32,000 nt of DNA from Cylindrospermopsis raciborskii Cr2010 (GTDB lineage Bacteria; Cyanobacteriota; Cyanobacteriia; Cyanobacteriales; Nostocaceae). This document shows positions 15,864 through 32,000 of this stretch, one piece after another. The translations under genes were made by a program, and so were the position numbers. Where the stretch lies: the NCBI RefSeq assembly GCF_003367075.2, contig NZ_CP065936.1, positions 1,950,001 to 1,982,000 on the forward strand, read 5' to 3'. A model generated the notes under the pieces. The model searched no databases. It was not told where the DNA came from and saw only the letters and a list, made by a program, of their open reading frames with translations. Within the stretch, counting starts at the first letter, position 1; every line of letters begins with the position of its first letter.

Positions 15864-16018
15864 CAGGGCTTGTTGTTACTTTTGTTGGCTACAATCATGG
15901 ATGGAACATGATGCTTTTATGTTTGACGATTATGAGGAAAAAATCAAGGGTTTGGCAGCATTTAATTAGACATAATTACAGTAATTATGAGAATTGTGTA
16001 ACCTAAGAAATACTTAAA

Positions 16019-17770
16019 CTATACTGAGTAGCGCCTTGATGTGTAAACCCAGATTTTCTCCAGGGGAGACTCTATTTTTTTAGTATGGGAAGAGCCAACA
16101 ATAATTAAAGTTCGCATATCCGCATCCGTAGGTTCTAAGTCTTGTAAACTTATGACTTTTAAAATTTCTCCTGGTCTACCAATATTACGTCCTAATATTA
16201 CAGGAGTATGGGGTTTCCTATATTTTAATAATATATCCCTAGCTGCTGTCAATTGCCAAGTTCTGGTTTGGGAAATTGGATTATAAAATGCGATGACAAA
16301 ATCCCCCTGAGCAGCATTAGTAATTCGCCTAGCTATGATTTCCCAAGGCTTTAAAATATCCGAGAGAGAAATTACACAAAAATCATGACCTAGGGGGGCG
16401 CCAACCGCAGCAGCAGTGGCCTGCATAGCAGAAATACCTGGAGCAACTTGAATATCAATTGTTTGCCATTCTGGTTGGTCATATTGGCTCAGCACATCAA
16501 AAACTGCTGTAGCCATGGCATAAATACCTGGATCTCCTGAAGAAACCACTGCCACATATCGTCCTTGAGCTGCTAAATCTAGGGCTTTTTTGGCGCGGGA
16601 TTCTTCTTCTCGGTTGTCTGATTCATGTATGTTTTTACCATCAGCTAAGGAACCAATGAGATTGATATAAGTTTTATAGCCTACTAAATCAGTAGCATTG
16701 TGGAGAATTTCCTGCACTTGGGGGGACATCCATTGTATTCCCCCAGGACCTGTACCGATGATGGCCAGTTTTCCTCTTGGTTGTCCAATAGTTTCTGGGG
16801 AAATAATTTCGTGAGCAATGCTGAGGGTAATTGGAGAAAATGGTGAATGAAAGTATGTATGATAGGCATTATTTATGATCATACTAGCACCAACCACCGC
16901 CTCATGAAAACTGCATCCTTTATCAGTTAGTTCCCGGATCTGATTTGTGTTCAGAAATCTCACCGGTAAGGAAAAAGTTTCACTAATATCCTGCAAAATA
17001 GAGTTATTAGCTAAAGTAAGAGGAGCAATTATCACTGCTAATGCGTGAGGGGAAATTTCTGATTTTGCCAATAATTCATGAATGTGGTTGAGTGTTTGTG
17101 AATGAAGCGCTGATAAAACAACTGCCACTGTTTGGGGATGATAAACTAAACAATTAGATGGGGGAATTAGGTTTTTTTCCGTAACTTGAATAGTTAATTC
17201 TCCCCTGTCATCAATGGGCAAATTACTCCCACTCAACCAAGGAGCTATACCCTGTAATTTAACTTTTGCTCCTGCTAATAAATCAGCTATAAATTTTTTT
17301 CCGTTGTCTGGATTAACTAAATAATAACCCCTGGGTGGAGATAATAAAGCGGTGCGAAATCTTAAATCTCCCGTAGTTGTAATGGCAGGTTTTATATTTA
17401 AACCGGCTCCTATTTGCCGTGCTAACTCATTTACTCCAGTTAGTCCACCCAAGAGAGGAACAACAGCACTACCATCTTCTGCTACAGCTAATAGAGGTGG
17501 TTCTTGATTTTTATTAGTAATTAATGGTGCGAGTGTTCTAATTAAAATACCAGCAGCACATATACCAATTATGGGGGTTCCCGTCACAAATAATTGTCCC
17601 AGGGTATGTCCAAAATCAGTAAAGCTCACATCCACATCACAGGTACGATTGGCTAAACCATATATTTTGGCACCCGGTATAACACCAACAATTTGTTTTG
17701 CCACTATGAGACTATTCTGACTGAGAATTATAACCACCGGTTTTGTTTTGTTTTTTTCCAATCCATTCAT
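16019..17770 (-). CDS. cobJ: Bifunctional CbiG-like / precorrin-3B C17-methyltransferase (CobJ/CbiH)
   Basis: The C-terminal ~250 aa are a tetrapyrrole methylase (GKLAIIGTGPGGIQWMSPQ..., VAVVSSGDPGIYAMA). The N-terminal ~330 aa resemble CbiG (ITTTGDL, LAVIIAP). 583 aa, last gene of the cob operon. Confidence 0.85.
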   Translation of the reverse strand: MNGLEKNKTKPVVIILSQNSLIVAKQIVGVIPGAKIYGLANRTCDVDVSFTDFGHTLGQLFVTGTPIIGICAAGILIRTLAPLITNKNQEPPLLAVAEDGSAVVPLLGGLTGVNELARQIGAGLNIKPAITTTGDLRFRTALLSPPRGYYLVNPDNGKKFIADLLAGAKVKLQGIAPWLSGSNLPIDDRGELTIQVTEKNLIPPSNCLVYHPQTVAVVLSALHSQTLNHIHELLAKSEISPHALAVIIAPLTLANNSILQDISETFSLPVRFLNTNQIRELTDKGCSFHEAVVGASMIINNAYHTYFHSPFSPITLSIAHEIISPETIGQPRGKLAIIGTGPGGIQWMSPQVQEILHNATDLVGYKTYINLIGSLADGKNIHESDNREEESRAKKALDLAAQGRYVAVVSSGDPGIYAMATAVFDVLSQYDQPEWQTIDIQVAPGISAMQATAAAVGAPLGHDFCVISLSDILKPWEIIARRITNAAQGDFVIAFYNPISQTRTWQLTAARDILLKYRKPHTPVILGRNIGRPGEILKVISLQDLEPTDADMRTLIIVGSSHTKKIESPLEKIWVYTSRRYSV

Positions 17771-17839
17771 AATATTATTGTCACGATTTAATTTGCTGTA
17801 GTTATACTAAATTAGATTTAATCATGTTAAATCTGTAAC

Positions 17840-18559
17840 CTACAGTCTTTGTTTAGTAGGTATGACAATCATGGAAAAATAAGGTACTTCTTCAGGGTCT
17901 ACCTCATCCAGTGGCACAATTCTCTGTTGTGTAGTAGTTGCGCGTTCAATATACTTTGCTCGGGAACTTAGTCCTAATTGATGCAGCACATCCCGGATTT
18001 TGACAAAATGACGACCGATCTTCATAATAGCAACAGCATCAGCGGAAAGAAGTTGACTAATTAACATTTCTCTAGGCAGCGTACCCGGTAAAACCTTCAA
18101 AATATCATTATAATAAGTAAAAGGTACACCCAAAGAAATCGGACAAGCCATTAAAGAAGAAATCCCGGGCACCACCTCCGTCTGATACTTATCTGAAAGT
18201 CGAGTAAATATATACATAAAAGATCCATAAAAAAACGGATCTCCTTCGCATAATACCACCACATCCCGACCAGCTGCCAAATGTGACCCAATAGGTTCAA
18301 CCTCGCGATCATAGATATCTTTAGCCTTTTCCGGTTCCAGAGCGCGGGGAAGATGATATAAAACCTCTATTTGATTCCCAGGTAAGTAGGGAGAGACAAT
18401 TTTTCTAGCAATACTTTCTCGATCTATAGCTGACTGATAGGCAATAACAGAAGCAGAACGTATTAAACGCAATGCTTTTAATGTTAACAGTTCCGGATCT
18501 CCAGGACCAACACCTACTCCATACAAACGACCTTTTAAATTCATGTTTCTTCCTCGCAT
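17840..18559 (-). CDS. cobI: Precorrin-2 C20-methyltransferase (CobI/CbiL)
   Basis: RLYGVGVGPGDPELLTLKA and VVVLCEGDPFFYGS methylase motifs. The second Met (MNLKGRLYG, ATG at 18544) overlaps the cobH stop as ATGA and is probably the real start. Confidence 0.9.
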   Translation of the reverse strand: MRGRNMNLKGRLYGVGVGPGDPELLTLKALRLIRSASVIAYQSAIDRESIARKIVSPYLPGNQIEVLYHLPRALEPEKAKDIYDREVEPIGSHLAAGRDVVVLCEGDPFFYGSFMYIFTRLSDKYQTEVVPGISSLMACPISLGVPFTYYNDILKVLPGTLPREMLISQLLSADAVAIMKIGRHFVKIRDVLHQLGLSSRAKYIERATTTQQRIVPLDEVDPEEVPYFSMIVIPTKQRL

Positions 18560-19170
18560 GCTAGCGCATTAATAGCAGAAGCGGCGATCGCACTTCCACC
18601 CCGTCTACCATGTAAAGTTAAAAATGGCACACCACGACTGTTCTCCGCCAGGGCGGCCTTAGATTCAGCAGCGCCCACAAAACCCACAGGAAAGCCTAGA
18701 ATCAGAGCTGGACGTGGCACTCCTTCATCCAACATTTCTAGCAATCTAAATAATGCCGTAGGAGCATTACCAATAGCCACAACCGCACCATCAAGATGAA
18801 ATCGCCATAGTTCCAGAGCTGCTGCTGAACGGGTATTGCCTAACCGTTTAGCTATTGTGGGCACTTCTGGATCATTCAAAGAACAAATAATAGCATTCGT
18901 AGTAGGTAATCTTTTTTTAGTGATTCCCTGTGCAACCATCTGACAATCACATAAAATGGGTGCACCCGCAGCCAAAGCGTTTTTGCCTAAATTTACAGCA
19001 TCTAGTGAGTATGCTAAGTCTTTTACTATATCCGTCATGCCACAGGCATGAATTAAACGCACAGCTATCTTTGCTACATCCTCCGGGAGACTATCTAATT
19101 GTGCTTCCGAGCGGATAATGTCAAAAGATTTTTTGTATATTTCTCCAGCATCTCGTATATAATTATACAT
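18541..19170 (-). CDS. cobH: Precorrin-8X methylmutase (CobH/CbiC)
   Basis: 209 aa with IHACGM and the C-terminal LHGRRGGSAIAASAINAL typical of CobH/CbiC. ATGA-coupled to cobI. Confidence 0.9.
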   Translation of the reverse strand: MYNYIRDAGEIYKKSFDIIRSEAQLDSLPEDVAKIAVRLIHACGMTDIVKDLAYSLDAVNLGKNALAAGAPILCDCQMVAQGITKKRLPTTNAIICSLNDPEVPTIAKRLGNTRSAAALELWRFHLDGAVVAIGNAPTALFRLLEMLDEGVPRPALILGFPVGFVGAAESKAALAENSRGVPFLTLHGRRGGSAIAASAINALACEEET

Positions 19171-19201
19171 AAACTACACATAAAATAGAAAAATTGCAAG
19201 A

Positions 19202-20788
19202 CTAAAAACACTCAACTGAGAGTTGAGTGAAAAACTCCTTGAGTTGAGATATATCATAACGATTGGCAAACTCGGTAAAGGACTCTTGAGGACTCAGACG
19301 ATTAAGTATATATACTTTGAATATATTTTCCATGAGTTGAGGTAATTGGGCAAAGGGGAAATTTTCATAAATTGGGCGGTGAATATTATTACCAATATAC
19401 ACTTGATATGCTGGGACAGATTGATTTTCTTGCTCAATGTTGACCCCAAGCAATGTAATATCACTTTCAGTGTGTTGGGCGCAAGACTTAGGACAGCCAG
19501 TGAAATGAATATTAATATGGGAATCTAGATTTATATAGGTTTGTAAATATTCGCTTAATATCAAAGCATGGGTTTTTGTGTCCGTAGCAGAAGAGGAGCA
19601 ACCACTGCTTCCGGAACAGGAGACCAACCCACTTTTTATGTTTGTAGGTGAGTAGTCAAGTTGCAAATCATGAATTTCCGAAGTTACCCAAGAAAGGTGT
19701 TGTTGAGGAATATTAGTGAGCAGTAAATTTTGCCAAGGGGTTAGTCTCAGTTCACCGGAGCCATATTGGGTTGCCATATTAGCCAATCGGCGAACTTGCC
19801 AAGTTTGTAATCGCCCCAGAGGTAAAACCAGACCAATATAAAACATTCCTGATTGTTTTTGGGGATGAATACCCAAATGGAAAACCTGGTCATGTTTTTG
19901 AGGGTTAAATTTGTGGTTAGGCAAAAGATTTGGAGAAGGAGCATGGGAGACTTGAAATTCCAGATCCCTTATCTTTTCTAAATCAAGTAACCTATTTTTA
20001 TGTAAAAGTACCAACATTTTATGTAAGAAACATTGCCATCCCACATTATTAATTACCTCTCGTAATCGGGGTTTGCGTTTAGCAAAGCATTCTTTAGAGA
20101 GCAAAGTGTATTCCAGATAGACTTGTGCCACAGATCCCAACACGGGTATACATTGTTCAGGAGTCAACCAAAGAGAGAAATTTGGGGAAAAATTTTCCTT
20201 TCCAGTGGCACAAAAATAAAAAATGGGATATATTGGTTTATGTCCCCATTTCCCCGTAGGAAAGAACTTAGGTTCTTTCCTACCCCCCTCAACAAGTAAA
20301 GAGATAGCATCCAGAGCAGTAAGAGATATGTCATTGGGAAAACTGGCGATAGATACTTTACCACCACCATCAAAACCCACACTAAACTTAGCTGAAAGCT
20401 CCCCTAGTTGGGGTTGATTATTAATATATTGCTCCCAATCTTGAATGAGCGGGCGAACATCTATTAACTCTCCTGGGTCTATACCAGCAGTAGGGCTAGT
20501 CATGATATTGCGGAGATGGTCTATAGCGGGATTAACAGCAGCCATACCAGAAGTTTGTAGGGTGTGCAGGTCATCCGTACTTATTTCCCGCTGAATTTCT
20601 CGGATTTGTAAGTTAGCGCGATTAGTAATATCAACATAACCACCCCCATAATCGTCAGCCATATTAGCGATCAGATGAAATTGTTGGCTATTTAAAATGC
20701 CACCAGGGGTGCGGATGCGACAGAGAATGCCATCTTGGGCAAAAGTGTTATAAAATAGACCGGGACAAGCTGTAAATGGACTTAACAA
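19202..20788 (-). CDS. cobG: Precorrin-3B synthase CobG (sulfite/nitrite-reductase-like ferredoxin fold); start re-set to TTG 20788
   Basis: ACPGLFYNTFAQDGILCRIRTPGGIL N-terminus typical of CobG. Siroheme/4Fe-4S Cys cluster in VSCSGSSGCSSSATD ... FTGCPKSCAQH. The track ORF runs up to ATG 20962, but 20828-20970 is a riboswitch aptamer. TTG at 20788 is in frame, 6 nt after a GGAGA Shine-Dalgarno, and gives MLSPFTACPGL... Confidence 0.7.
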   Translation of the reverse strand: MLSPFTACPGLFYNTFAQDGILCRIRTPGGILNSQQFHLIANMADDYGGGYVDITNRANLQIREIQREISTDDLHTLQTSGMAAVNPAIDHLRNIMTSPTAGIDPGELIDVRPLIQDWEQYINNQPQLGELSAKFSVGFDGGGKVSIASFPNDISLTALDAISLLVEGGRKEPKFFPTGKWGHKPIYPIFYFCATGKENFSPNFSLWLTPEQCIPVLGSVAQVYLEYTLLSKECFAKRKPRLREVINNVGWQCFLHKMLVLLHKNRLLDLEKIRDLEFQVSHAPSPNLLPNHKFNPQKHDQVFHLGIHPQKQSGMFYIGLVLPLGRLQTWQVRRLANMATQYGSGELRLTPWQNLLLTNIPQQHLSWVTSEIHDLQLDYSPTNIKSGLVSCSGSSGCSSSATDTKTHALILSEYLQTYINLDSHINIHFTGCPKSCAQHTESDITLLGVNIEQENQSVPAYQVYIGNNIHRPIYENFPFAQLPQLMENIFKVYILNRLSPQESFTEFANRYDISQLKEFFTQLSVECF

Positions 20789-21275: not shown

Positions 21276-22022
21276 GTGGGAGTAGTATATATAGGCGATC
21301 GCGCAACGGGTAAGACACACTTAGCCCTAGAATTAACCAATCCGAGACATGAACATGTGAAAGTTACCAGTCCAGACTATGACCAACTTAAGTTATTATT
21401 ACTAGATGAAAACTCCATGTCTAAACCTACGGACACACTAAAGCCCTATCAAAGGTATTTAGAAATGAATGTTCAACTGCCATCTGGCAATAAAAGGGTT
21501 GAATTAGACTGGATTGACACCGGAGGGGAAGTATGGCGGGGAAATTGGCAAAGGGATAATTCTGACAAATGGAAAGACTACTTAGAACCCATTCGTCAGA
21601 GTGAGGGGATATTACTCATTCTTCCACCCCATAGGGGAATGACCTTTCAACCTGGTGTAGACACCCAAGAATTTCCCACAGAGCAACAATGGTGTAATCG
21701 TTTTGAAACCTGGGTGACATTTTTCTGCGACCAGTGTCCCCAAATTAGACATTTAGCCATTTGTCTCAACAAAGCCGACTTATTTTGTGATCTATCCCAA
21801 GAGGGAAAGAAACTGGCCTATAGACCTTATAATAGTCCCTGTAATTGGCAACAAAGACATGAACACGTACTAAAAAAATATTTTCGTCCCGTGTATTCCC
21901 AAATCCGGAGATTAGGTGAAGGTATGAGCAGTCCATCCGTAAAATGTTTTATCACATCAATTTACCATCGAAGCTTATTAGAACTACCTTGGATTTACTT
22001 AGGCAGTTTTTTAGGTAAATAA
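21276..22022 (+). CDS. Small Ras-like P-loop GTPase, paralog A (248 aa), with a canonical NKxD
   Basis: GTG start. G1 IGDRATGKTH (aa 6-15), candidate G2 KPTD, G3 WIDTGGEVW, G4 ICLNKADL, and a C-terminal aromatic tail LPWIYLGSFLG. No ATG is available upstream in frame. Confidence 0.8.
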   Translation: MGVVYIGDRATGKTHLALELTNPRHEHVKVTSPDYDQLKLLLLDENSMSKPTDTLKPYQRYLEMNVQLPSGNKRVELDWIDTGGEVWRGNWQRDNSDKWKDYLEPIRQSEGILLILPPHRGMTFQPGVDTQEFPTEQQWCNRFETWVTFFCDQCPQIRHLAICLNKADLFCDLSQEGKKLAYRPYNSPCNWQQRHEHVLKKYFRPVYSQIRRLGEGMSSPSVKCFITSIYHRSLLELPWIYLGSFLGK

Positions 22023-22100
22023 GATAACTTTGTTGACACTAGGCAAAAAACATTTTAAAAAAGGTTACCCAACTAAAAAAGAACTAAAAAGGGGAAGAGT

Positions 22101-22931
22101 ATGAGTAATATCCATATAATTGGGCCCCAGGCCGCAGGTAAAACCACATATTTAGCAGCTTTAGCCTACCAACCAGAGACATCGAGATCACCCGTGAGAC
22201 AGGCAAATATTAAGATAAAGACATTAAATGAAGAAACCAGAGAACTAGTAGACAAAGCAGAAAACATAATTTTACAGGGAGCTTCTTTAGAACCCACCCA
22301 GAAATATGTCAAAACCATTGATGATTTAAAAGTTTACTCATTTTTAATTGAAATCAAGAGAAAATGGCGGAACCTAGAGAGACTACAACTAACAGTAAGA
22401 GACTACCCAGGAGAAGTTTTTAAAGAGTTAGAATCTGGTTCTAGGGATCCGATACATGAAGAATTTATAAACGAGTGTTTGAGCGCAGACACCCAGGGTT
22501 GTTTAATCCTGCTAACCGAGTGGGAACAAGGGATAGACAAATTTTATAAACGAGTATTCAGAAGATTTATAGCCCTGATGGATGAACAACAAAGATTGCA
22601 AAATTTGCGATTAGCCATAGCCATGAGCAAATGTGAGAGAGGGGAATTATGGCCTGGTAGATTAGATCCTGAAAGCGACCTATTTGCCATTCACTTTCCA
22701 GACACACTACGCTTGTTAAGAGACAATATTCCCCAGAAAAACCTAGAATTTTATGCCATATCCGCCTTTGGAGTTTTAAGTAACAAAGATCCCCGACCCA
22801 ACCGTAAAGAAGAACTAGGAAAAAAAGACAGATACTCTGTTTTAAGAGATCCCGACAGATGGTCACCATACTGTTTAGTATCCCCCCTTTATTGGTTAAG
22901 TACAGGTAAGAGGATCCAAGGATATGTTTAA
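22101..22931 (+). CDS. Small Ras-like P-loop NTPase, paralog B (276 aa), with a degenerate G4
   Basis: RBS-like GGGGAAGAG before the ATG. G1 IGPQAAGKTT, G2 LEPTQ, G3 VRDYPGEVF, SKCE at the G4 position, G5-like ISAFGVL, and the tail SPYCLVSPLYWL. A clear paralog of C. Confidence 0.85.
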   Translation: MSNIHIIGPQAAGKTTYLAALAYQPETSRSPVRQANIKIKTLNEETRELVDKAENIILQGASLEPTQKYVKTIDDLKVYSFLIEIKRKWRNLERLQLTVRDYPGEVFKELESGSRDPIHEEFINECLSADTQGCLILLTEWEQGIDKFYKRVFRRFIALMDEQQRLQNLRLAIAMSKCERGELWPGRLDPESDLFAIHFPDTLRLLRDNIPQKNLEFYAISAFGVLSNKDPRPNRKEELGKKDRYSVLRDPDRWSPYCLVSPLYWLSTGKRIQGYV

Positions 22932-23787
22932 CTTCTTCAAAAAGAAAGATAAAACATCACAGGATAGTGCCTCAGTGAGACTAATAGGCGATCGCACTGC
23001 GGGGAAGACCACCTATATGGCATCCTTAGCGAGGTGGCCAAATGCCAACCCTGAAAGTTTAGTGCAAGCAGTAACAGCCATAGACGAAGGGGGACAGGAT
23101 CTAATCAGCAAAGCACAAAACATACTAGAGCAGGGACTAGAACTAGAAAGTACCCAACTATCCTCCAACGTATCAGACGTTAGAGATTGCACCCTGCAAA
23201 TCACCCTAAAAGAGAAAAATCAACTACTGAATTTAAACGTCAGTTGTAAAGACTACTCAGGGGAATTTTTTAGAGACCTATTGCACCAAAACAATTCCCA
23301 ACTAGAGGAATATTTAGAAGATTGCGTCCAGGCCAATGGTATTATATTTTTAGTTGATGGTAGTAGTAGACGTAAGGACTCAGAGTATGTGAATGGGCTA
23401 GATAAGTTTTTGTTACTATTAGATCGGAATGATATAGCGGGGAGTAAAAAGAGGATTGCTCTAGTATTAAATAAATGTGAACAACCGGACCTATGGGTAA
23501 ACCGAAACAAACCAGAATACCTAGCATCTGCGAGATTTCCCCAAGTGTGTAGTAGATTAAAGGCCTGGCAAAAAATGGGAGGGGGGAACATAGAGTTTTT
23601 TACAGCATCAGCATTTGGTATGTTGGGTACTAAATACCCAGAACCCAACGTAAACTTATTGACCAGAGGGAGATCAGGAGTGACAGCAGTCATTAGAAAT
23701 CCCAAATTATGGAGACCCTTTGGTTTAATTGCTCCCATTTATTGGCTATGTAAAGGTTCTCGTCATCCACAACTAGATAACGGTTAA
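22924..23787 (+). CDS. Small Ras-like P-loop NTPase, paralog C (287 aa), with a Lys-rich N-terminal extension
   Basis: The start overlaps the B stop by 8 nt (ATGTTTAA). G1 IGDRTAGKTT, G2 LESTQ, G3 CKDYSGEFF, G4 position LNKCE, G5-like ASAFGML, and the tail RPFGLIAPIYWL. N-terminus is MFNFFKKKDK. Confidence 0.85.
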   Translation: MFNFFKKKDKTSQDSASVRLIGDRTAGKTTYMASLARWPNANPESLVQAVTAIDEGGQDLISKAQNILEQGLELESTQLSSNVSDVRDCTLQITLKEKNQLLNLNVSCKDYSGEFFRDLLHQNNSQLEEYLEDCVQANGIIFLVDGSSRRKDSEYVNGLDKFLLLLDRNDIAGSKKRIALVLNKCEQPDLWVNRNKPEYLASARFPQVCSRLKAWQKMGGGNIEFFTASAFGMLGTKYPEPNVNLLTRGRSGVTAVIRNPKLWRPFGLIAPIYWLCKGSRHPQLDNG

Positions 23788-23791
23788 AAAT

Positions 23792-26500
23792 ATGAACTCA
23801 TCTGACAATAAAATCCACGAAATACACAAAATACATGAATTTAGTACAGGTATTCACTTTGAGCAGCGAGGTAATAGTTGGGTTTCTACAGGGTTTACTG
23901 GGCGATATATGAACAGCACCATGGGGGAGATTCCCAAAGTGGTAGAGAGGTCAATTGCCAATGAAGAATTTGCCCTAGCGGAAGGATCATCCACAGAGAA
24001 ACCAGCAATAATTGCCAGAATATTAGGGAGCGGGGATGATATTTGGTCAGTAATAGCAGTGGTTACCAGGGGGAGAGATGAAGTAGGGAGGAGTGCAGCT
24101 TTTCACCGTTATTTTTTATGTCAGGGAGATCATAAACTGAGGGTAATATTAGCCTGGTGGGAACAAAATAACCGACCAACATTTAACCCCCTGGATAAAC
24201 AAGATGAGGGTAGTCCCCATATATTTGAAGGGGAGGTTCCAAAATTACCAGATTTAGAGCAAATATTGCTATTATTCAAGGTACAAACTAAACCACAGGA
24301 AGAGCAAAGATTATCATCCCCCGCACAACAATCTGAATTTACACAGGAACTCTTACAACAGTCAGATGTACAAACTGAACCGCAGGGAGAGCAAAGATTG
24401 CCATCTCCTGCACAACAATCTGTATTTACATGGGGATCCCAACAACCCTCTGAACCACAGGTGGGTGGACACCAATCTACACAGAGAGTTCAACCATTAT
24501 CATTCGAGATAGGAAAGCCATCAGGACAGCAAAGATTATCATCCCCCGTACAACAATCTGAATTTACACAGGAACTTTCACAACCGTCAGATGTACAAAC
24601 TGAACTACAGGGACAGCTCCCATCTCCTGCTCAGCAACCTGTATCTACATGGGGATACCAACAACCATCTGAACCACAGATGGGTACAGGGGAATACTCC
24701 CTATTTCAGCAATTAAGTCCCATAGTTTTAGAGCCAAATGTCCAGTATGATTTATATACCATCAACGTATTAGCAATTAACAAATGGAACTCCTGCAAAA
24801 ATGGACTACCAGTATGTTGGGCATTTGACGTAGAAGCACTAGTCAAACCAGAAAGATTTCAGGTGATTAAACCAGCATCCCAAAAAGCAAGAGATGGAAT
24901 AAACAGAGCGATCGCAGCTGGGAGTAGAGTGATCAGAAATGCGGTAAACATTGATGAAGCAGCATTAAAATCTGCTCTCAGGAGTTTAGCAAATAGTTCT
25001 CAAGTGAAACCCGAATCAGTAGAGACCATTGTAGATGGGTTAAACAACAAAGATGTCACTCGTGAATATTGGTACAGTTTATTTAATGCTCAAGGGACAG
25101 ATAGAGCCATTAAAGAAAACATTTACAGTCCACAAATTGTCAGATTAATGACCTTGAGAGCATTAGTTATTCCAGAAACATTACCAGAATTTTTGCAATG
25201 GTTGAACATCCAAAAGGGTAGTAATGTTGATGGTAATCAAAGAGTATCATTGGAATTACAAAAAAAGATTCAGCCACTATTTCCCAAAGAGAAGATAGGG
25301 GCGGGTATTACCTATTTGTTACCTAGTTTATTAGCTGGTAAAATATCAGTAGATGGGTTATGTTGGTTATTAGCCAAGAGTGGTGGTGATACCATTTGGG
25401 CTTATGGTCGAAATCAGTTTATAAACAACATCAAATATGATCTACAATTGATTTATAATTATTATTCCAAACCAATAGTGGGACCTTTTAATGAAAGCAC
25501 CCTTGAATGTGGAGCGGAAGCTTGGAAAAGTTTAATTAACAGGTGGCAAGATATCCGAAGGATGTATAAAAAATGTGAAAAGTATCGACCTTTAGCTCAA
25601 TTATTTGAACGATTCAAAGAGTGTAATTTAGCTGGATATTTTTACCAAGTTAGTAATGGATTTGTTAAAAAGGATCTATTTTATGAAATAGCTGAGGCGC
25701 AAAATCGTCCTTCACCGGTTATTTATGGTTTAGGAATTGAAAAAGAACTAACTTTAGAGGATATTATTATTGGTTTAGCTGATGGCGTTGTTAAATTTTT
25801 TAATCAGGATGTAGATATGAAACTTGTATTTGTTATTCCCGCTTCACTGTTAATCTTAGGAAGTGGTTGGTTCATTGGCTCAAAAACTTGGCATTATTAT
25901 GTCAATGCTAATGAAGCTGAGAAGTTCTTGTGTAAAAAATTTGGTGGTGGTGAAAATTGTCCCATTATAATGTTCAATGGGGAAGCCCACTATTCTTTTG
26001 AGGAGATTAAAGAAGTAATTCCCACAGTTGTGCAGCAAGTTGTTAAGGAACGAAAGGAGTTACCAACTCCAGAATCAACAAAAGCTGCGGTGACAAAACC
26101 AGCAGGACAAAATTCTGGTCAACAAGATGATAATGAACCAAAAGTTGCTCAAAAGCTTGCTCAAATTTTAGGTGATTCAAACCTTCAATATGATGATTTA
26201 AAGAAAGGAACAATAGAACAAAAAGCCCAAACATCATGGGTAATAGCAGTGTATAATTATCAAATCAAACACAATATAGTAAAAAAAGTCATGCAGAAGA
26301 ATGATAAAGAAGAGTGCGTCTTACCCTTATTACCAATGTTTGATAATTTGTGTTTATGGAAAAATGAACCAGAGAAAAATAAACCAGAGAAAAACAAACC
26401 GGAAAAAATAACAAATTTTTCTGCATTGAAAAATAAATTAGTGGAAGATATCAATAAAACAATGAATAAACCAGAAACTTCAAAAAACAGTAAAGGGTAA
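23792..26500 (+). CDS. Large single-pass membrane protein, paralog D (902 aa): unique N-terminal domain + P/Q-rich repeats + shared ~515-aa module; no family recognised
   Basis: Starts 4 nt after the C stop. aa 1-135 are a unique domain and aa 164-302 a P/Q-rich repeat. aa ~388-902 are homologous to the whole of E. One predicted TM helix, KLVFVIPASLLILGSGWFIG (aa 677-696, nt 25820-25879), is followed by a ~205-aa tail with four Cys conserved in E. Confidence 0.8.
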   Translation: MNSSDNKIHEIHKIHEFSTGIHFEQRGNSWVSTGFTGRYMNSTMGEIPKVVERSIANEEFALAEGSSTEKPAIIARILGSGDDIWSVIAVVTRGRDEVGRSAAFHRYFLCQGDHKLRVILAWWEQNNRPTFNPLDKQDEGSPHIFEGEVPKLPDLEQILLLFKVQTKPQEEQRLSSPAQQSEFTQELLQQSDVQTEPQGEQRLPSPAQQSVFTWGSQQPSEPQVGGHQSTQRVQPLSFEIGKPSGQQRLSSPVQQSEFTQELSQPSDVQTELQGQLPSPAQQPVSTWGYQQPSEPQMGTGEYSLFQQLSPIVLEPNVQYDLYTINVLAINKWNSCKNGLPVCWAFDVEALVKPERFQVIKPASQKARDGINRAIAAGSRVIRNAVNIDEAALKSALRSLANSSQVKPESVETIVDGLNNKDVTREYWYSLFNAQGTDRAIKENIYSPQIVRLMTLRALVIPETLPEFLQWLNIQKGSNVDGNQRVSLELQKKIQPLFPKEKIGAGITYLLPSLLAGKISVDGLCWLLAKSGGDTIWAYGRNQFINNIKYDLQLIYNYYSKPIVGPFNESTLECGAEAWKSLINRWQDIRRMYKKCEKYRPLAQLFERFKECNLAGYFYQVSNGFVKKDLFYEIAEAQNRPSPVIYGLGIEKELTLEDIIIGLADGVVKFFNQDVDMKLVFVIPASLLILGSGWFIGSKTWHYYVNANEAEKFLCKKFGGGENCPIIMFNGEAHYSFEEIKEVIPTVVQQVVKERKELPTPESTKAAVTKPAGQNSGQQDDNEPKVAQKLAQILGDSNLQYDDLKKGTIEQKAQTSWVIAVYNYQIKHNIVKKVMQKNDKEECVLPLLPMFDNLCLWKNEPEKNKPEKNKPEKITNFSALKNKLVEDINKTMNKPETSKNSKG
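24305..24685 (+). repeat. In-frame tandem duplication inside D: two near-identical P/Q-rich units with a 225-nt period
   Basis: Unit 1 (24305-24466) is QRLSSPAQQSEFTQELLQQSDVQTEPQGEQRLPSPAQQSVFTWGSQQPSEPQVG. Unit 2 (24530-24685) is QRLSSPVQQSEFTQELSQPSDVQTELQGQLPSPAQQPVSTWGYQQPSEPQMG. DNA identity is very high; for example, gcaaagattatcatccccc occurs in both. Confidence 0.9.
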
Positions 26501-26534
26501 ATTAATAAACATACAACCACACTCCCAAACAAAT

Positions 26535-28133
26535 ATGAAGCCAGAAACCCAAACCTTGCTCAAACAAGCGATTCGCAAATTAATCCACACCTCCCAAGTC
26601 AAACCCGAAGCAGTACACACAATTGTAGATGGGTTAATAAATAAGGAAGTTACCTCCCAGGACTGGGAAGATCTCTTCAATCAAGATGGTGCCAGTATTG
26701 CATTGCAAGAGAAGATATACACCCCCCATTTAGTCAGACTAATCACACTCAGAGCATTAGTTATTCCAGAGACACTACCCGAATTTTTGCAGTGGTTAAA
26801 CATCCAAAAAGCCAGTATCACTGATGAGCACAAAAGAGTATCCTTAAAACTCCAAAAAGGGATTCAGACCTTATTCCCTAAAGAGCAAATAGTAGCAGGG
26901 ATTACTTACTTGTTACCCAATTTATTAAATCGTAGAATGCCAGTAGATAAATTATTTTGGTTATTAGATGGGAGTAATAGTAATAACATTTGGGCTCACG
27001 CTCGAAATCAGTTTATAAATAACATTAGAGATGATCTACAATTAATTTACAACTACTACTCAAAACCAATGACACAAGTTGTTGGTGAAATTACCCTGAA
27101 CTGTGGATCTGGGGTTTGGAGAAGTTTAATGAACAGATGGGAGGGTATTAGAGAATATAACAAATGCAAAGAGTATCGACCTTTGGCTCAATTGTTTGAA
27201 CAATTAAAAGAGCATGATTTGGCTGGATATTTTTATCAGGTTAGTGATGGAGTTGTTAAAAAGGATTTATTTTGTAAAATAGCTAAAGGGCATAGTCCTC
27301 GTTCACCAGTTGTTTTTGGCTTAGAAATTCGAGAAATACCTTTAGAGGATGTTATTATTAATTTGGTCTATAGTTTAAGATTCTTAGGAATTGAGGAAAA
27401 ACTAACTCATGAGTTAGTTGATTTTGTTCTTAAAATTAGATTGGTTTATAGATATAAAATTGTTAACTTTTTTAATCAGGATGTAGATATGAAACTTGTA
27501 TTTGTTATTCCCGCTTCGTTGTTAATCTTAGGAAGTGGTTGGTTCATTGGAGCAAAAACTTGGCAGTATTATATCAACGCTAATGAAGCCGAGAAATTAT
27601 TGTGTAAAAAATCGGGTGGTAGTGAAAACTGTCCGGTTGTAGTATTGGATGGACAAGCCCACTATTCTTTTGAGGAGATTAAAGAAGTAATTCCCAAAGT
27701 TGTGCAGCAAGTTGTTAAGGAACGAAAGGAGTTACTAACTCCAGAACGAACAAAAGCTGCGGGAACAAAACCAGCAGCAAAAAATTCTGGTCAACAAGAT
27801 GATACTGAACTAAAAGTTGCACAAAAGCTTGCTCAACTTTTAGGTGATTCAAAACTTCAATATGATGATTTGTTGAATAACCAGCCAACAGAAATGGTCA
27901 AAAGACAATGGGTAATAGCAGTATATAATTATCAAGTTAAACGCAGCATACAAAAAAAAGGGAAAGAAGAGTGCGTCTTACCCTTATTACCAATGTTTGA
28001 TAATTTGTGTTTATGGAAAAATGAACGAGAGAAAATAATAAACTTTCCTAAATTGGAACCTACATTACTGGAAGATATAAATAAAAAGAATGGACAAACA
28101 AGAAACTCGAAAAAAAAGCGCAAAGTAAATTAA
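26535..28133 (+). CDS. Single-pass membrane protein, paralog E (532 aa): the shared module only, homologous to D aa ~388-902
   Basis: Aligns with D from SQVKPE[AS]V.TIVDGL to the C-terminus. The TM helix KLVFVIPASLLILGSGWFIG (aa 320-339, nt 27492-27551) is identical to that of D. E carries a ~28-aa insertion before the TM (NLVYSLRFLGIEEKLTHELVDFVLKIRLVYRYKI) and has a basic C-terminus (SKKKRKVN). Confidence 0.8.
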   Translation: MKPETQTLLKQAIRKLIHTSQVKPEAVHTIVDGLINKEVTSQDWEDLFNQDGASIALQEKIYTPHLVRLITLRALVIPETLPEFLQWLNIQKASITDEHKRVSLKLQKGIQTLFPKEQIVAGITYLLPNLLNRRMPVDKLFWLLDGSNSNNIWAHARNQFINNIRDDLQLIYNYYSKPMTQVVGEITLNCGSGVWRSLMNRWEGIREYNKCKEYRPLAQLFEQLKEHDLAGYFYQVSDGVVKKDLFCKIAKGHSPRSPVVFGLEIREIPLEDVIINLVYSLRFLGIEEKLTHELVDFVLKIRLVYRYKIVNFFNQDVDMKLVFVIPASLLILGSGWFIGAKTWQYYINANEAEKLLCKKSGGSENCPVVVLDGQAHYSFEEIKEVIPKVVQQVVKERKELLTPERTKAAGTKPAAKNSGQQDDTELKVAQKLAQLLGDSKLQYDDLLNNQPTEMVKRQWVIAVYNYQVKRSIQKKGKEECVLPLLPMFDNLCLWKNEREKIINFPKLEPTLLEDINKKNGQTRNSKKKRKVN

Positions 28134-28192: not shown

Positions 28193-28357
28193 ATGAACTC
28201 ATCTGACAATAAAATCCACGAAATCCATGAATTTAGTACAGGTATTCACTTTGAGCAGCGAGGTAATAGTTGGATTTGGATAGGGTTTACCATAAAATAT
28301 ATGAACAGCACCATGGGGGAGGAGATTCCCAAAGTGGTAGAGAGGTCAACACATTAG
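28193..28357 (+). pseudogene. Truncated third copy of the D N-terminal domain (54 codons, then a stop)
   Basis: MNSSDNKIHEIHEFSTGIHFEQRGNSWIWIGFTIKYMNSTMGEEIPKVVERSTH* is nearly identical at DNA level to 23792-23953 of D. Similarity ends abruptly at ~28350. The upstream context (aaaaacATGaac) resembles that of D (aaaatATGaac). Confidence 0.8.
28290..28333. repeat. Left copy of a 41/44-bp direct repeat bracketing the 3.3-kb cassette
   Basis: ccataaaatatatgaacagcaccatgggggaGGAgattcccaaa is identical to 31668-31708 except for the extra GGA. It lies within the truncated D-like stub. Confidence 0.85.
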
Positions 28358-28644: not shown

Positions 28645-29514
28645 ATGAAACTAAATGATTTTAAATCTTTTTTAGGTAATCCTGTTTATGAAGATAAAGA
28701 TGTATTGATTTACCAAGGTGACTCATTAACAATCATGAATAAATTACCAGCAGGATGTTTACCCTTAACCGTTACATCTCCTCCCTATAATATCGGCAAA
28801 GAATATGAATCTATATTATCATTAGAAGATTATATTCAATGGACATCTAAATGGATTAATCAAGTTTATTATTGCACATCATCTTCTGGTGCGTTTTGGC
28901 TAAATCTTGGTTATCTTTCTATTCCTAATACAGCTAAAGCAATTCCAATCCCCTATTTAATTTGGGATAAAATTCCTTTTTATTTAATCCAAGAAATTGT
29001 TTGGAATTATGGTGCGGGAGTAGCAGGTAAATTGTTTTTTTCTCCTCGTAATGAGAAATTTTTATGGTATGTAAAAGACTCTCAAAACTATTTATTTAAT
29101 TTAGATGATATCCGTGATCCTAATGTTAAATACCCTAATCAAAAGAAAAATGGCAAATTAAAATGTAATGTTAACGGAAAAAATCCTACTGATGTTTGGC
29201 AAATCCCCAAAATTACATCTGGTCAAAATCGTAGTTCTAAAGAAAGAACTCCTCATCCAGCACAATTTCCAGTTGAGTTAATTAGTCGAATCATTTTAGC
29301 CAGTAGTCATCCTGGAGATATTATATTTGATCCTTTTTTTGGTTCTGGTTCAATAGCAGAAGCAGCTATAAAAACAGGACGTAAAGCAATAGGTATTGAA
29401 ATCAATCCAAATTATGTAAACATTGCAGTACAAAGAGTTAAAAATATCAGATATGAGAAAGAAAATCAAGTGAAACAAGGTAGTTTATTTGATTTAGTTA
29501 CTGATATTTTTTGA
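28645..29514 (+). CDS. DNA methyltransferase, beta-class N4/N6 (N6_N4_Mtase type; the SPPY motif suggests N4-cytosine or N6-adenine)
   Basis: Motif IV TVTSPPYNIG (aa ~42-51) precedes motif I IFDPFFGSGSIAEAA (aa ~226-240), which is the beta permutation. 289 aa, very AT-rich, with no HIP1 site. Confidence 0.85.
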   Translation: MKLNDFKSFLGNPVYEDKDVLIYQGDSLTIMNKLPAGCLPLTVTSPPYNIGKEYESILSLEDYIQWTSKWINQVYYCTSSSGAFWLNLGYLSIPNTAKAIPIPYLIWDKIPFYLIQEIVWNYGAGVAGKLFFSPRNEKFLWYVKDSQNYLFNLDDIRDPNVKYPNQKKNGKLKCNVNGKNPTDVWQIPKITSGQNRSSKERTPHPAQFPVELISRIILASSHPGDIIFDPFFGSGSIAEAAIKTGRKAIGIEINPNYVNIAVQRVKNIRYEKENQVKQGSLFDLVTDIF

Positions 29515-30228
29515 GAGATGAATTTCCTGTTTTTGACGCATAAATTGGGAACGTCTCTTTTTCACGATTTCGGGGATATATTCATTTTTATTATCTTGTC
29601 CATCAAATCCTAATCTTAAATAGACATTACCTCCTATTCCTGGTATTACTTCACCTTCGTTGGTGCGTTCATCGTCTTTAGCAAAATAAAGAAATTCAAA
29701 TTTACTATAAATATTTTCGTCAAATTCATCTTTGAGTTTTTGCTCTGCATTTTTATAAATGACAGGTGCAACTATAAATATCTTCTCTGGTTCTATTTTT
29801 TGAATCAAGTTCACTAAGTTAGTTCTGACTACACAAGCACCAGAAATAATAGATTTAATTACAATCAAATACTGAACCTTCCCATGGGAAGGTTCTTGAT
29901 ATTTTTTGAGGATGGGAGCTACTTTTAAATCTTCTATTTCAAATGGAGAAAATCGCTTGTTCCAAAAACAAGCAAAGCCAATATTGTGATAATGATTTTC
30001 TAATTCTGAAAGTATGCCTTTAGCTAAAAAATCAGCATCTTCTACTGTACAAGCAAGGTATATATCAGAAGTTTTATCATTAATTTTAGTCAGCAAGAAA
30101 TTACCAAGATTATCACCTATCTTGGTCATAGTTTCTTTGTACTGGTCTGGATTGACACCCTTATTGGCTAATGTTTCCAGTAATTTCCGAACGTCTTGGT
30201 TGCAAATATCTGTATATAACCTAGTCAT
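29494..30228 (-). CDS. Divergent uracil-phosphoribosyltransferase-like (type I PRTase fold) protein with a degenerate PRPP loop
   Basis: By eye it aligns with Upp. QYLIVIKSIISGACVVRTNLVNLIQK sits at the position of the PRPP-binding loop (xxLVDPMLATGGS in Upp). EVIPGIGGNVYLRLG matches the Upp C-terminal motif IIPGLGDAGDRxFG. 244 aa; its 3' end overlaps the methyltransferase by 21 nt in convergent orientation. Confidence 0.5.
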   Translation of the reverse strand: MTRLYTDICNQDVRKLLETLANKGVNPDQYKETMTKIGDNLGNFLLTKINDKTSDIYLACTVEDADFLAKGILSELENHYHNIGFACFWNKRFSPFEIEDLKVAPILKKYQEPSHGKVQYLIVIKSIISGACVVRTNLVNLIQKIEPEKIFIVAPVIYKNAEQKLKDEFDENIYSKFEFLYFAKDDERTNEGEVIPGIGGNVYLRLGFDGQDNKNEYIPEIVKKRRSQFMRQKQEIHLSKNISN

Positions 30229-30508
30229 ATCAAGAACACCTCCAAATCTTCAAAGGAAGTAGGGCGATTTTTTTTAATAAGTTCCTGAAATTTTTGAAAC
30301 CTTGCTGTTTCGATACTGTAAGGTAATGTTCCTGCATTAGACATCTCCGGAAATAGCCAAAGCGTTACCAATACTACTTTTTAAGGTGAGACACCCCAAT
30401 ACAAAAGTAGCTAGCTGGTATGTTAAAATAAGCGTTAGAGATGCCTCTTGTTGGGAATTAACCAAAAGATAACACCTATCTGAGATAATTTATTTTTAGC
30501 CAAGTCCA

Positions 30509-31559
30509 AATCTTGATAACTAAAATAAGTAGGTTCCCATTCGGAAACGAACAAGTCCACAAATAGTCATGATTACCTGTTCATACTTACTTGAATTTAA
30601 TCGAAATCTTTCTTGTGCCACTCTGAATATTTTCACTACACGAATTAAATGTTCAACAAAAATTCGTTCGGAAGCTAACTCTTTATTTTTTTCTTTTTGT
30701 TCAGACGTTAATTCTTGGTTTTTAGGTTTTTTTGTCGGAGTTTTCATTAACTCCTCTCCTTGATAAGCTTTATCACCACTAAATTTTTGTTTTTTATCAA
30801 ATATATTTCTGGTTTCACGGAATAAATTTACATCACTTTTTGGACCAGGTTTACCCGCTACTACATCAACAATATCTTTACCATTTGGTAAAACGATTAG
30901 TTGACTTTTTCTAGTATGACAGGCTTTTTTACCTGAATAATATTTTTTTTGTTCTTGGTACTCTCCAGGTCTGTCTATAGGCTGTTCATAGCTATCCACT
31001 ATTAACTCAAATTCTGTTAATATTTCTTTAACGACTTCGTAATCACTGGAGTTTTTTTTTACCTGTTCTAGCAAACTTGGTGGCAATAATTCTCCTATTA
31101 TTGGCAACCAATAGTTAAAGATATCATTTGCAGTTGTTTCACTTACTCCAAATTGAATACCTAGTAGCTGAAATGTTGTTAACTGCCGTAAATATGTTAA
31201 TGTTAAGATTATTTGCTCCGACGGTGATAATTTGGGTTTGCGCCCTCCACCGCCTTGAATAATTCGGGTTTTTTTTGATTCAACCAATTGTTGTTTCTGA
31301 TGATGCAGTTTTATGGCTTTTTCCAAAAGTTGCTGTAACTGCTCATACTTCAGACCCAATAAACGGTGTGATTCGTGAGGATTATTCTGGATATATTCAG
31401 ATATGTTGCTCATAATAAGTTGCCAAAAATACCATTTCATATTATTTTATCACACTTTGATTCTTTTTCGGAGATGTCTATTTAGACCGTCGAAATACTC
31501 CCATTGTAAAAACCCTCTGGTTAAATTATATGTGAAACCGTCTATTTTATCAAAGATTT
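30509..31559 (-). mobile_element. Insertion sequence carrying the DDE_Tnp_4 transposase (boundaries approximate)
   Basis: Imperfect terminal inverted repeat: the left aaatcttgataactaaaataag (30509-) matches the reverse complement of the right end, aaatctttgataaaatagac (-31559). I found no clear target-site duplication, so the ends are tentative. Confidence 0.4.
30520..31440 (-). CDS. DDE transposase, DDE_Tnp_4 / IS5-superfamily (Harbinger-like) type
   Basis: N-terminal HTH region (LTYLRQLTTFQLLGIQFGVSETTANDIF). DDE region with LIVDSYEQPIDRP, GKDIVDVVAGKPGPKSDVNLF, FSGDKAYQG and ERIFVEHLIRVVKIFRV. The true start is probably MSNISEY (31413). Confidence 0.85.
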   Translation of the reverse strand: MKWYFWQLIMSNISEYIQNNPHESHRLLGLKYEQLQQLLEKAIKLHHQKQQLVESKKTRIIQGGGGRKPKLSPSEQIILTLTYLRQLTTFQLLGIQFGVSETTANDIFNYWLPIIGELLPPSLLEQVKKNSSDYEVVKEILTEFELIVDSYEQPIDRPGEYQEQKKYYSGKKACHTRKSQLIVLPNGKDIVDVVAGKPGPKSDVNLFRETRNIFDKKQKFSGDKAYQGEELMKTPTKKPKNQELTSEQKEKNKELASERIFVEHLIRVVKIFRVAQERFRLNSSKYEQVIMTICGLVRFRMGTYLF

Positions 31560-31592: not shown

Positions 31593-31660
31593 AATTACGA
31601 ATTACGAATTACGAATTACGAATTACAAATTACGAATTACGAATTACGAATTACGAATTA
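31593..31660. repeat. Heptanucleotide tandem repeat (AATTACG)n, about 9.7 copies, STRR-like
   Basis: aattacg repeats head to tail from 31593 to 31660 with one variant unit (aattaca). Period 7, no spacers. Confidence 0.95.
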
Positions 31661-31667
31661 TTTTATC

Positions 31668-31708
31668 CCATAAAATATATGAACAGCACCATGGGGGAGA
31701 TTCCCAAA
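31668..31708. repeat. Right copy of the 41/44-bp direct repeat bracketing the cassette
   Basis: ccataaaatatatgaacagcaccatgggggagattcccaaa matches 28290-28333. Both copies share the IKYMN-type variant (cataaaatatatg) rather than the GRYMN version in D (gggcgatatatg). Confidence 0.85.
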
Positions 31709-31718
31709 AATGATCAGT

Positions 31719-32000
31719 TTACAAACTCCCTAAAACCTCCAACCCCTCACCCCAATTCTCATTATACCGTAGAGTTAAAACTTGATAACTAGCATTGTAC
31801 CTGAGATTATCCCGCTCAATTTTATCTTGCTTTTTCTGCTCAGGACTATCATGAACTGAACCATCACAAAAGAGAGCGATCGCATCTTCCTTATACACAA
31901 AATCTGGTTTACAATTGGCTTCAGGAATAAATTCCTGTGCAGCATCAGGTAGTTTATACCCCCGTTGATAAATCTCCTGTAACACTACTCGTTCAAAATC
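31719..32000 (-). CDS. C-terminal end of a larger protein (open to the window edge) with a Vsr/DUF559-like PD-(D/E)xK endonuclease-type domain
   Basis: The frame stays open from 31985 to 32000 (DFERVV-LQEIYQRGY...), so the GTG in the track is not the real start. CKPDFVYKEDAIALFCDGSVHDSPEQKKQDKIERDNLRYNASYQVL resembles the (a)DF...(l)xxDGxxH...D..R core of DUF559/Vsr-type domains found at the C-termini of large helicase/defence proteins. It contains a HIP1 site (31876-31883). Confidence 0.45.
   Translation of the reverse strand, partial: DFERVVLQEIYQRGYKLPDAAQEFIPEANCKPDFVYKEDAIALFCDGSVHDSPEQKKQDKIERDNLRYNASYQVLTLRYNENWGEGLEVLGSL

Follow-up and report, generated by a model that had tools for sequence, protein, structure and literature searches.

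What kind of system do five closely spaced genes, three for paralogous small GTPases and two for related single-pass membrane proteins, form in the cyanobacterium Cylindrospermopsis raciborskii? The genes, here called A to E, occupy positions 21276 to 28133 of a 32,000-nucleotide (nt) stretch of strain Cr2010 (contig NZ_CP065936.1, positions 1,950,001 to 1,982,000), which was analyzed at its full length and is referred to as the window. An initial annotation, made from the DNA letters and their translations, had put the locus forward as a candidate undescribed NTPase-driven system. Here, we report a comparative analysis from which we read the locus, with confidence a little better than even, as the reduced core of a conserved, envelope-associated cyanobacterial GTPase system related to the DO-GTPase conflict systems.

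The five genes were intact open reading frames (ORFs) on the + strand, and the operon-like layout first described for them was correct in its coordinates, its gaps (78 nt between A and B, 4 nt between C and D, and 34 nt between D and E), and the 8-nt overlap of B with C:

21276-22022, + strand: gene A, 248 amino acids (aa), GTG start, predicted soluble small GTPase, the outlier among the three
22101-22931, + strand: gene B, 276 aa, predicted soluble GTPase, close paralog of C, G4 motif SKCE
22924-23787, + strand: gene C, 287 aa, predicted soluble GTPase
23792-26500, + strand: gene D, N-terminal (N) domain, linker, middle region, one transmembrane (TM) helix, and tail
26535-28133, + strand: gene E, 532 aa, paralog of D without the N domain, with helical domain, TM segment (aa 321-339), and tail

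The nearest database proteins were those of C. raciborskii, one of them 100% identical to D. When the window was compared with two other Cylindrospermopsis genomes, the ratio of nonsynonymous to synonymous substitution rates (dN/dS) for A to C was 0.06 to 0.35; because these genes also have orthologs across Cyanobacteria, the five are real genes and not chance ORFs. Scans for promoters and terminators returned counts no different from those in shuffled sequence.

All three GTPases reached the Pfam model DO-GTPase1 (27.2 bits for A, 27.4 for B, and 37.7 for C; curated cut-off, 27), and C was also above the cut-off for DO-GTPase2 (35.6 bits; the family models are PF19975 and PF19993). The scores of A and B are borderline, and the matches of A to C cover only the N-terminal half of DO-GTPase1; the DO-GTPase2 match of C extends to model position 174 of 226. 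Ortholog sets of 26 to 29 proteins per GTPase type were taken from other cyanobacteria, and among those of A, DO-GTPase1 was matched by 22/28 (E ≤ 0.01) and Roc by 16/28. The P-loop, DxxGE, and G4-position motifs, for which the initial annotation had called A to C Ras-like GTPases, are present and invariant within each set. The P-loops read GDRxxGKT in A and C and GPxxxGKTT in B, starting at residues 7 (A), 8 (B), and 22 (C). The invariant residues of A are G12, K13, and T14, then D81, G84, and E85, then N165, K166, and D168 (G4, N165-K166-x-D168); those of B are G13, K14, and T15, then D101, Y102, G104, and E105, then S176, K177, and E179 (G4, S176-K177-C-E179); and those of C are G27, K28, and T29, then D110, Y111, G113, and E114, then K184, C185, and E186 at G4, followed by S229, A230, F231, and G232. 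This last G5 motif (SAFG/STFG) is invariant in the ortholog sets of both B and C, and the Walker-B Glu is kept in all three proteins (E85, E105, and E114, respectively). Neither a hydrophobic segment nor a Cys cluster was present in A, B, or C. As judged from these sequence features, all three are soluble, catalytically intact GTPases of TRAFAC type.

That the three are paralogs was borne out, unevenly so. B and C aligned over their full length (hhalign E = 2.6e-54, 32% identity), whereas A was far more distant from C (E = 3e-9, 22% identity), and an aromatic tail first described as common to all three (P-[LI]-YWL) holds for B (PLYWL) and C (PIYWL) and only approximately for A (LPWIYL). By sequence, therefore, the three GTPases are not on a par, B being close to C and A the outlier. 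Profiles of the A and C families had no significant relative among solved structures, NCBIfam and PADLOC supplied no name for any of A to E, and no significant match to the anti-phage systems of PADLOC-DB 2.0 was found for the five. The dynamin-like "Eleos" (LeoABC) system was considered and dropped, there being no PADLOC match. A fused B-C gene suggested by an extension script in two Pleurocapsales genomes was a script artefact, as a stop codon separates the two genes on translation.

When the D alignment was used to scan a single genome from each species, 78 loci were recovered, nearly all of them cyanobacterial (Nostocales, Oscillatoriales, Pleurocapsales, Chroococcales, Spirulina, and others), with two in Trichodesmium erythraeum IMS101. 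The order A-B-C-D, all on the same strand, was found in 55 of the 63 loci that had 3 kb or more of upstream sequence, so the view of the genes as a linked unit that recurs across genomes held; one or more D-family bitopic membrane proteins always follow three GTPases. The GTPases are 48 to 78% identical within their own type and ~30% identical to the other types, and the three types are therefore old. Gloeothece, Xenococcus, Geminocystis, and Chroococcidiopsis also carry the system, which is thus not specific to filamentous cyanobacteria, as an alternative offered at first had it. A 2-kb contig filed under "Actinomycetales bacterium mxb001" encodes a D N domain 71 to 76% identical to that of the Cylindrospermopsis protein; this contig is most likely cyanobacterial and mis-binned into an actinobacterial metagenome-assembled genome.

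Elsewhere, A-B-C-D forms the front of a 12- to 15-gene cluster. When all ORFs of the 78 loci were clustered, the further genes conserved downstream of D, on its strand, included a multi-TM protein of ~360 aa (F, named an FHA-domain protein in some databases; 51 loci), a secreted vWA protein (50 loci), and one to five ARC6-like IMS-domain proteins (34 loci), with more vWA proteins, a small protein K, a zinc-ribbon-FHA protein, and Ser/Thr kinases as further conserved downstream genes; full clusters also encode a serine hydrolase that carries a beta-lactam catabolism annotation. The 35.8-kb plasmid B of Trichormus variabilis ATCC 29413 devotes ~16 kb to the set, whose last genes are those for FHA and PP2C; A to D and F are annotated there as "hypothetical," and five full-cluster proteins from this plasmid had no significant match in PADLOC-DB 2.0. 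C-like genes were found on eight cyanobacterial plasmids, six of them mobilizable or conjugative. The mobilizable plasmid pNsp_h of Nostoc sp. ATCC 53789 carries a second, divergent subtype of the entire cluster (positions 10279 to 20081); the C-like GTPase there shares only 39% identity with C, and a dynamin-family gene adjoins the cluster.

None of the downstream cluster genes had a match in the window. Contigs and complete genomes of the same species share one layout (A-B-C, two or three D genes, and a 54-codon D remnant), and no F protein was attributed by name to Cylindrospermopsis or Raphidiopsis among the best 120 F homologs, which is suggestive of absence and not proof. On these grounds, the lineage probably carries only the core of the larger cluster, the downstream genes having been lost at the locus. 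A to E are hence not the self-contained five-gene system they first seemed to be, being the 5' core of a cluster with F, vWA, ARC6-IMS, FHA, PP2C, and kinase genes.

The content of full clusters ties the system to the envelope, with a TM helix in every D-family member, PG_binding_1-like tails in some, and the secreted vWA, ARC6-IMS, and serine hydrolase proteins. It also brings in the main rival to our reading, a housekeeping envelope, cell-wall, or membrane-remodelling module in which the GTPases regulate peptidoglycan or septum remodelling via D. Those same proteins and tails are what such a module could be expected to contain, the cluster occurs in all major cyanobacterial orders, and the GTPases are under purifying selection. 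There is precedent as well: neighbourhoods of FtsZl1, vWA, GTPase, and kinase genes have been read as membrane remodeling (Makarova and Koonin 2010, PMC2875224), and in them a diverged P-loop GTPase, likewise "hypothetical," is encoded alongside vWA proteins, Ser/Thr kinases, and peptidoglycan-binding proteins. In contrast to those neighbourhoods, no tubulin/FtsZ-like gene was detected in the window or in the conserved neighbours of the present loci, and the neighbourhoods have no equivalent of D. A housekeeping role also sits poorly with the pattern of carriage (only 78 loci among the species representatives scanned, with plasmid carriage that is mostly mobilizable or conjugative) and with the retention of the core in Cylindrospermopsis and Raphidiopsis after loss of all periplasmic components. 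Furthermore, strains that are otherwise nearly identical differ greatly in the tail of D, and D copy number shifts (see below); neither would be expected of a core morphogenetic machine. We consider remodelling unlikely, the strongest of the competing explanations though it is.

Gene D encodes a protein composed of five parts:

23792-24196, + strand: N domain (aa 1-135), alpha/beta, the best-conserved part of D
24239-24706, + strand: P/Q-rich disordered linker (aa ~150-305), length varying between strains
24707-25771, + strand: middle region (aa 306-660), an alpha/beta part (306-388) followed by an all-helical domain (389 to ~640-650)
25823-25891, + strand: TM helix (aa ~678-700), hydrophobic 19-mer, helix at 681-705 in the AlphaFold2 (AF2) model
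25922-26500, + strand: C-terminal tail (aa 711-902), hypervariable, with four Cys and a 15-nt repeat

D and E had no match to any Pfam, NCBIfam, or PADLOC model; the GAP1 models were unmatched by D, E, or any of 38 D homologs, and GASH and FNIII were absent from the Pfam matches in D, E, and these homologs. The first impression that no effector in D or E could be named thus stands. A D-family profile was searched against 1.84 billion representative sequences, and the best 150 of 587 matches were all D-family members. At sequence level, D represents a new family, one with no significant relative among solved structures.

The N domain has 24 invariant columns in the 38 homologs (including R76, D96, R100, and R106) and was modelled by AF2 with a predicted local distance difference test (pLDDT) score of 90.6 and a strand/helix order of bbb-a-bbb-a. 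A Foldseek search against the PDB placed TagF first (E = 7e-3, probability 0.97, TM-score 0.36), followed by FNIP2 of the folliculin complex, the Lst4 longin, SEA-complex subunits, an Asgard roadblock-longin protein, and PAS/LOV domains. These are weak matches throughout (E = 7e-3 to 0.3, TM-score ≤ 0.39), and the PAS/LOV domains score alike; "TagF/longin-like" is thus a weak, model-based fold-class lead and not a family assignment. The full-length model again returned TagF for the N domain and otherwise only generic alpha-solenoid PDB matches (E > 0.08), and the helical domain and tail of D had no significant Foldseek match in the PDB or among viral structures.

Two resemblances follow from these fold matches. 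Longin and roadblock domains serve as platforms for small GTPases in MglB-MglA, FLCN-FNIP, GATOR1 on Rag heterodimers, and the DENN exchange factors (PMC3521125, PMC3747258). By analogy, the N domain of D is a small alpha/beta domain with a b-b-a-b-b-b-a type layout encoded beside small GTPases, B and C are close paralogs as RagA and RagC are, and FNIP2, Lst4, SEA, and Asgard longins are among its best fold matches; unlike those platforms, it scores weakly in structure, has no sequence similarity to them, and belongs to a membrane protein, and we do not file it as a member.

The second resemblance is to the threonine-phosphorylation control of type VI secretion, in which TagF acts with Fha, PpkA, and PppA. 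TagF is the top fold match, and full clusters encode FHA, kinase, PP2C, and vWA proteins; the match is weak, however, no type VI secretion genes are present, and the window holds no partner genes. From this resemblance comes a further alternative, a plasmid or mobile-element surface apparatus for entry exclusion, mating-pair control, or regulation of secretion, in which the N domain of D would act TagF-like on FHA while kinase and PP2C provide a type VI-like threonine-phosphorylation switch. The carriage of the system on eight plasmids, a TraG/VirD4-like coupling ATPase just upstream in seven loci, and the linkage of FHA, PP2C, and kinase genes (with one homolog fused to PP2C) speak for it. 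Most loci are nonetheless chromosomal and have no other conjugation or secretion genes, and the window lacks FHA, kinase, PP2C, and coupling ATPase, yet the N domain is conserved. We regard a surface apparatus as very improbable, and less likely than remodelling.

The remaining parts of D differ in their constancy. The linker, which in this strain is an insert of ~170 aa relative to other genera, has a pLDDT below 50 at residues 182 to 297 and includes an in-frame 87-nt tandem repeat (24281-24446). The middle region (pLDDT mostly > 90) is conserved across Cyanobacteria. The strongest hydrophobic 19-mer of D is LVFVIPASLLILGSGWFIG, and an equivalent single strong hydrophobic segment was found in 38/38 homologs. 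Near the C-terminus, a second in-frame tandem repeat (15 nt; 26359-26411) encodes EKNKP units, which are not found in E. Two variants of the D architecture were observed. In a partial C. raciborskii D-type protein, 93% identical over the middle domain, a GUN4 domain replaces the TM helix and tail; the protein is a soluble form with another C-terminal module, or else a chimera produced in assembly. In the D homolog of Planktothrix sp. FACHB-1365, a PP2C phosphatase and a coiled coil are fused ahead of the N domain.

Gene E is 62% identical to D over D389-901/E6-529, and each protein has one strong hydrophobic 19-mer, in agreement with the shared single-TM module first described. The four Cys proposed as conserved are indeed common to D and E and confined to the tail; across the wider family, they are not kept. 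An N-less form with the start point of E recurs in Dolichospermum, Cuspidothrix, Sphaerospermopsis, and Raphidiopsis, so that E, from its sequence relationships, is a recurrent N-less form of D and not simply a second "giant."

The tail of D is probably periplasmic and near peptidoglycan, given the long N-terminal part without a signal peptide, the confinement of the four Cys to the tail, and a weak peptidoglycan-binding signal. This signal consists of a family tail motif (AIYxYQ...DGII..T...L) that resembles the second half of PG_binding_1 (PF01471), with weak Pfam matches to this domain in 3 of 38 family members, one above the cut-off (25.9 versus 23 bits). The tail profile reached the peptidoglycan-binding regions of L,D-transpeptidases in the PDB only at E = 0.2 to 0.5, which is not significant.

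Comparison between strains separated constant from variable parts. A, B, and C have the same lengths and are 97 to 100% identical (A, dN/dS 0.13; C, 100% identical), whereas D paralogs are 67 to 83% identical. By region, the N domain of D is 91 to 98% identical, the middle region 89 to 99%, and the tail 51 to 55%, with a tail dN of 0.31 to 0.36, dS of 0.37 to 0.44, and dN/dS of ~0.8 to 1. The D paralogs of sister strains are 800 to 896 aa long (800 to 902 aa overall), and D is present in two to three copies within the species and in one to five tandem copies across the phylum. The constant parts of the system are the GTPases and the D N domain, and the variable parts are D copy number and the D tail. 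Within the window, D and E are far more alike in their tails (69% identity, dS 0.26) than in their helical domains (63%, dS 0.92), as they also are in DNA identity (86% over TM helix and tail versus 74% over the middle domain); this supports the mosaic gene conversion suspected at the outset, with the paralogs exchanging or converting their tails.

Raphidiopsis brookii D9 is syntenic and has A-B-C-D-D at the same chromosomal site. DNA identity to this genome decreases along the locus, being 89% in the cobalamin flank, 77% in A to C, and 68% in the D middle region, and no DNA match was detectable between the D tails. Its retention of the array bears on a further possibility, that the five genes are a decaying relic, non-functional after the downstream loss and not yet erased. 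Apart from the absence of the downstream half of the ancestral cluster, two D fragments in the window accord with decay, one of them a copy cut to 54 codons and the other lying 3.4 kb away:

28193-28357, + strand: dead D-copy remnant, the first 54 aa of the N domain, then a stop
31668-31708, + strand: D N-domain fragment (D aa 38-49), direct repeat of 28290-28333, tblastn match

The first of these was recognized from the start as a decayed third copy; tblastn and direct reading showed that it encodes D1-54 at 84% identity before the stop, and the 54-aa ORF is also present in the sister genomes. A restriction-modification cassette and an insertion sequence (IS) within the former array are likewise in keeping with decay. 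The GTPases themselves are intact, unchanged in length, nearly identical in the strains examined, and under the low dN/dS given above, and the N and middle domains of D are conserved at 89 to 99%. Decay of the whole locus is, in our judgment, improbable and a lesser rival than remodelling.

How closely the system is related to the conflict systems named in the initial annotation can now be stated. DO-GTPases are TRAFAC GTPases with a conserved Walker-B Glu, often as two paralogs; paralogous copies occur in 38% of systems, which implies dimers, and N-terminal zinc ribbons (60%) and TM segments (13%) are frequent and not obligatory (Kaur et al. 2020, PMC7159879). In the GTPase-centric systems of that study, a GAP1 protein is encoded downstream of the GTPase or fused to it, accompanied by a GASH (N1) or FNIII-repeat (N2) protein, and a constant core is combined with a component that varies even between close relatives (PMC7159879).

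The GTPase family named in the annotation is the one Pfam assigns to A to C, and several further traits agree: the GTPases reach Pfam cut-offs, keep the Walker-B Glu, and occur as paralogous copies; a large conserved protein with a C-terminal TM helix and probably extracytoplasmic variable parts is encoded directly downstream; full clusters add the vWA, kinase, and PP2C genes of the third GAP1-N2 theme; and a constant core (A to C) is combined with a variable component (D tail and D copy number). In contrast to those systems, GAP1-N, GAP1-M, and GAP1-C were not found in D, E, or the 38 homologs, nor GASH or FNIII in the window or in the neighbours F, G, H, J, and K, the FHA protein, and the kinase; the GTPase genes number three and not one or two, with neither zinc ribbon nor TM segment; and the DO-GTPase1 match is limited to the N-terminal half of the model. 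The more distant third copy, A, is an addition undescribed for the family. Membership thus holds at the level of the DO-GTPase family and not at that of GAP1, GASH, and FNIII. The description as a candidate undescribed system survives to a similar extent: D is not a recognizable GAP1 protein and cyanobacteria have been called nearly devoid of such systems, but the GTPase family itself was predicted in 2020. In full-text searches, no other DO-GTPase paper was found save one passing mention, and none on this cluster.

The signatures of biological conflict noted at first were confirmed and extended, comprising variable paralog number, a dead copy, tail exchange, an adjacent defence island, carriage on plasmids, and the hypervariable tail. 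Because of the plasmids, shifting copy number, dead copies, hypervariable tail, and defence island, the accessory character of the system fits the constant-core-plus-variable logic of Kaur et al. Sharp divergence of a membrane protein's distal end among close relatives is characteristic of systems that detect assaults on the envelope.

On our reading of the locus as an envelope-associated core related to the DO-GTPase systems, B and C would heterodimerize into a switch, and A would be the third GTPase, in a regulatory role. The GTPases would dock on the cytoplasmic N domain of D (weakly TagF/longin-like, with invariant Arg residues), which may be a platform of the kind that activates GTPases or exchanges their nucleotide, by analogy with the longin and roadblock domains that act on MglA, Rag, and Rab. 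As the lineage has no other linked genes, the GTPases are the only conserved neighbours of the N domain (91 to 98% identical). Beyond the membrane, the D tail would be the specificity element, sensing an envelope event such as attack by a phage or another foreign or damaging agent, and the signal would cross the membrane via the helical domain and determine which nucleotide state the GTPases adopt. For most cyanobacteria, the route of output may be the linked vWA, FHA, PP2C, and kinase genes together with the periplasmic ARC6-IMS proteins; because linked output genes are missing in Cylindrospermopsis, either D and E would there have to generate it (through GTPase-driven membrane clustering, for example) or unlinked partners would. 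E, which is without an N domain and so is likely unable to bind the GTPases, would be a partner or decoy that pairs with D via the helical domain.

Several points weigh against this interpretation. The five genes contain no identifiable effector, and no component is listed in PADLOC. D has no sequence similarity to GAP1, and its role as GTPase partner is deduced only from gene order and conservation. The longin/TagF likeness is weak (E ≥ 7e-3, TM-score ≤ 0.39), and TagF itself binds an FHA protein and not a GTPase. For the orientation of the tail, the peptidoglycan-binding signal is weak and the DGII..T portion of its motif is missing from D and E of the window, and with 54 Lys plus Arg residues before the TM helix and 79 after it, the positive-inside rule is not decisive. 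Positive selection on the tail is not established, since the high tail dS shows that recombination contributes. The defence-island neighbourhood is documented in one lineage only, and full-text literature searches found no experimental study of any DO-GTPase system.

A bolder form of the interpretation, which we hold as a tentative possibility, is that of a phylum-wide immune or surveillance system in which a longin-type domain on a transmembrane receptor controls a hetero-oligomeric GTPase switch (A plus B/C), while the receptor's hypervariable periplasmic tail recognizes invaders. If so, bacteria would have a counterpart to the longin regulators that eukaryotes pair with GTPase heterodimers, here coupled to receptor diversification, and D would be a new protein family in place of GAP1. 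The longin-like reading, should it be true, would also inform the bacterial origins of longin/GTPase signalling. As a class, the bacterial DO-GTPase systems are large and purely predicted, and the founding paper reports them as "nearly completely absent in cyanobacteria" (PMC7159879). Under our reading, the present locus would be a compact, conserved cyanobacterial branch of this class with a different partner protein, D, which joins a well-modelled domain that may regulate GTPases to a tail that differs from strain to strain in a toxin-producing species that forms blooms. In Cylindrospermopsis, the system has only three GTPases and two or three D-type proteins and would be a naturally minimal form in which to study such switches and resistance to cyanophages.

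The remaining features of the window lie downstream of the dead D copy:

28645-29514, + strand: type II N6/N4 DNA methyltransferase, converging on the 244-aa gene
29494-30228, - strand: 244-aa gene with no Pfam or PADLOC match
30520-31440, - strand: DDE_Tnp_4 transposase of the IS (element at 30339-31479), with 16-nt terminal inverted repeats (30338-30353, 31465-31480)
31593-31660: perfect heptamer array (AATTACG) × 9.7, between the IS and the helicase 3' end
31719-32000, - strand: C-terminus of a DEAD/ResIII/Helicase_C/MZB protein, 1786 aa in full

In sister genomes, the D remnant is followed by the type II methyltransferase, the 244-aa gene (which may be the restriction partner of the methyltransferase), and the 1786-aa DEAD/MZB helicase, and then by a HepT/MNT (nucleotidyltransferase) pair and an MmeI-type enzyme; these last genes identify the neighbourhood as a defence island that abuts the locus. 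A direct repeat of ~44 nt (28290-28333 and 31668-31708; exact 32-nt core with a 16-nt extension) codes for a part of the D N domain, YMNSTMGEEIPK, and brackets the methyltransferase and the 244-aa gene, for which reason a restriction-modification-like cassette seems to have inserted in a former D copy, the rest of which was lost. The IS insertion is clean: two sister genomes and a metagenome contig with an identical E gene lack it, and these three IS-free sequences are 94 to 99.7% identical to the window on either side of it.

Upstream of A, genes for cobalamin synthesis lie on the opposite strand (CbiC, CbiG, tetrapyrrole methylases, and a NIR_SIR protein). Unrelated to the system, a single 962-aa ORF (12372-15260, - strand) joins a G3P_acyltransf (PlsY-like) N-terminus to PPDK_N and PEP-utilizers domains, an unusual fusion.

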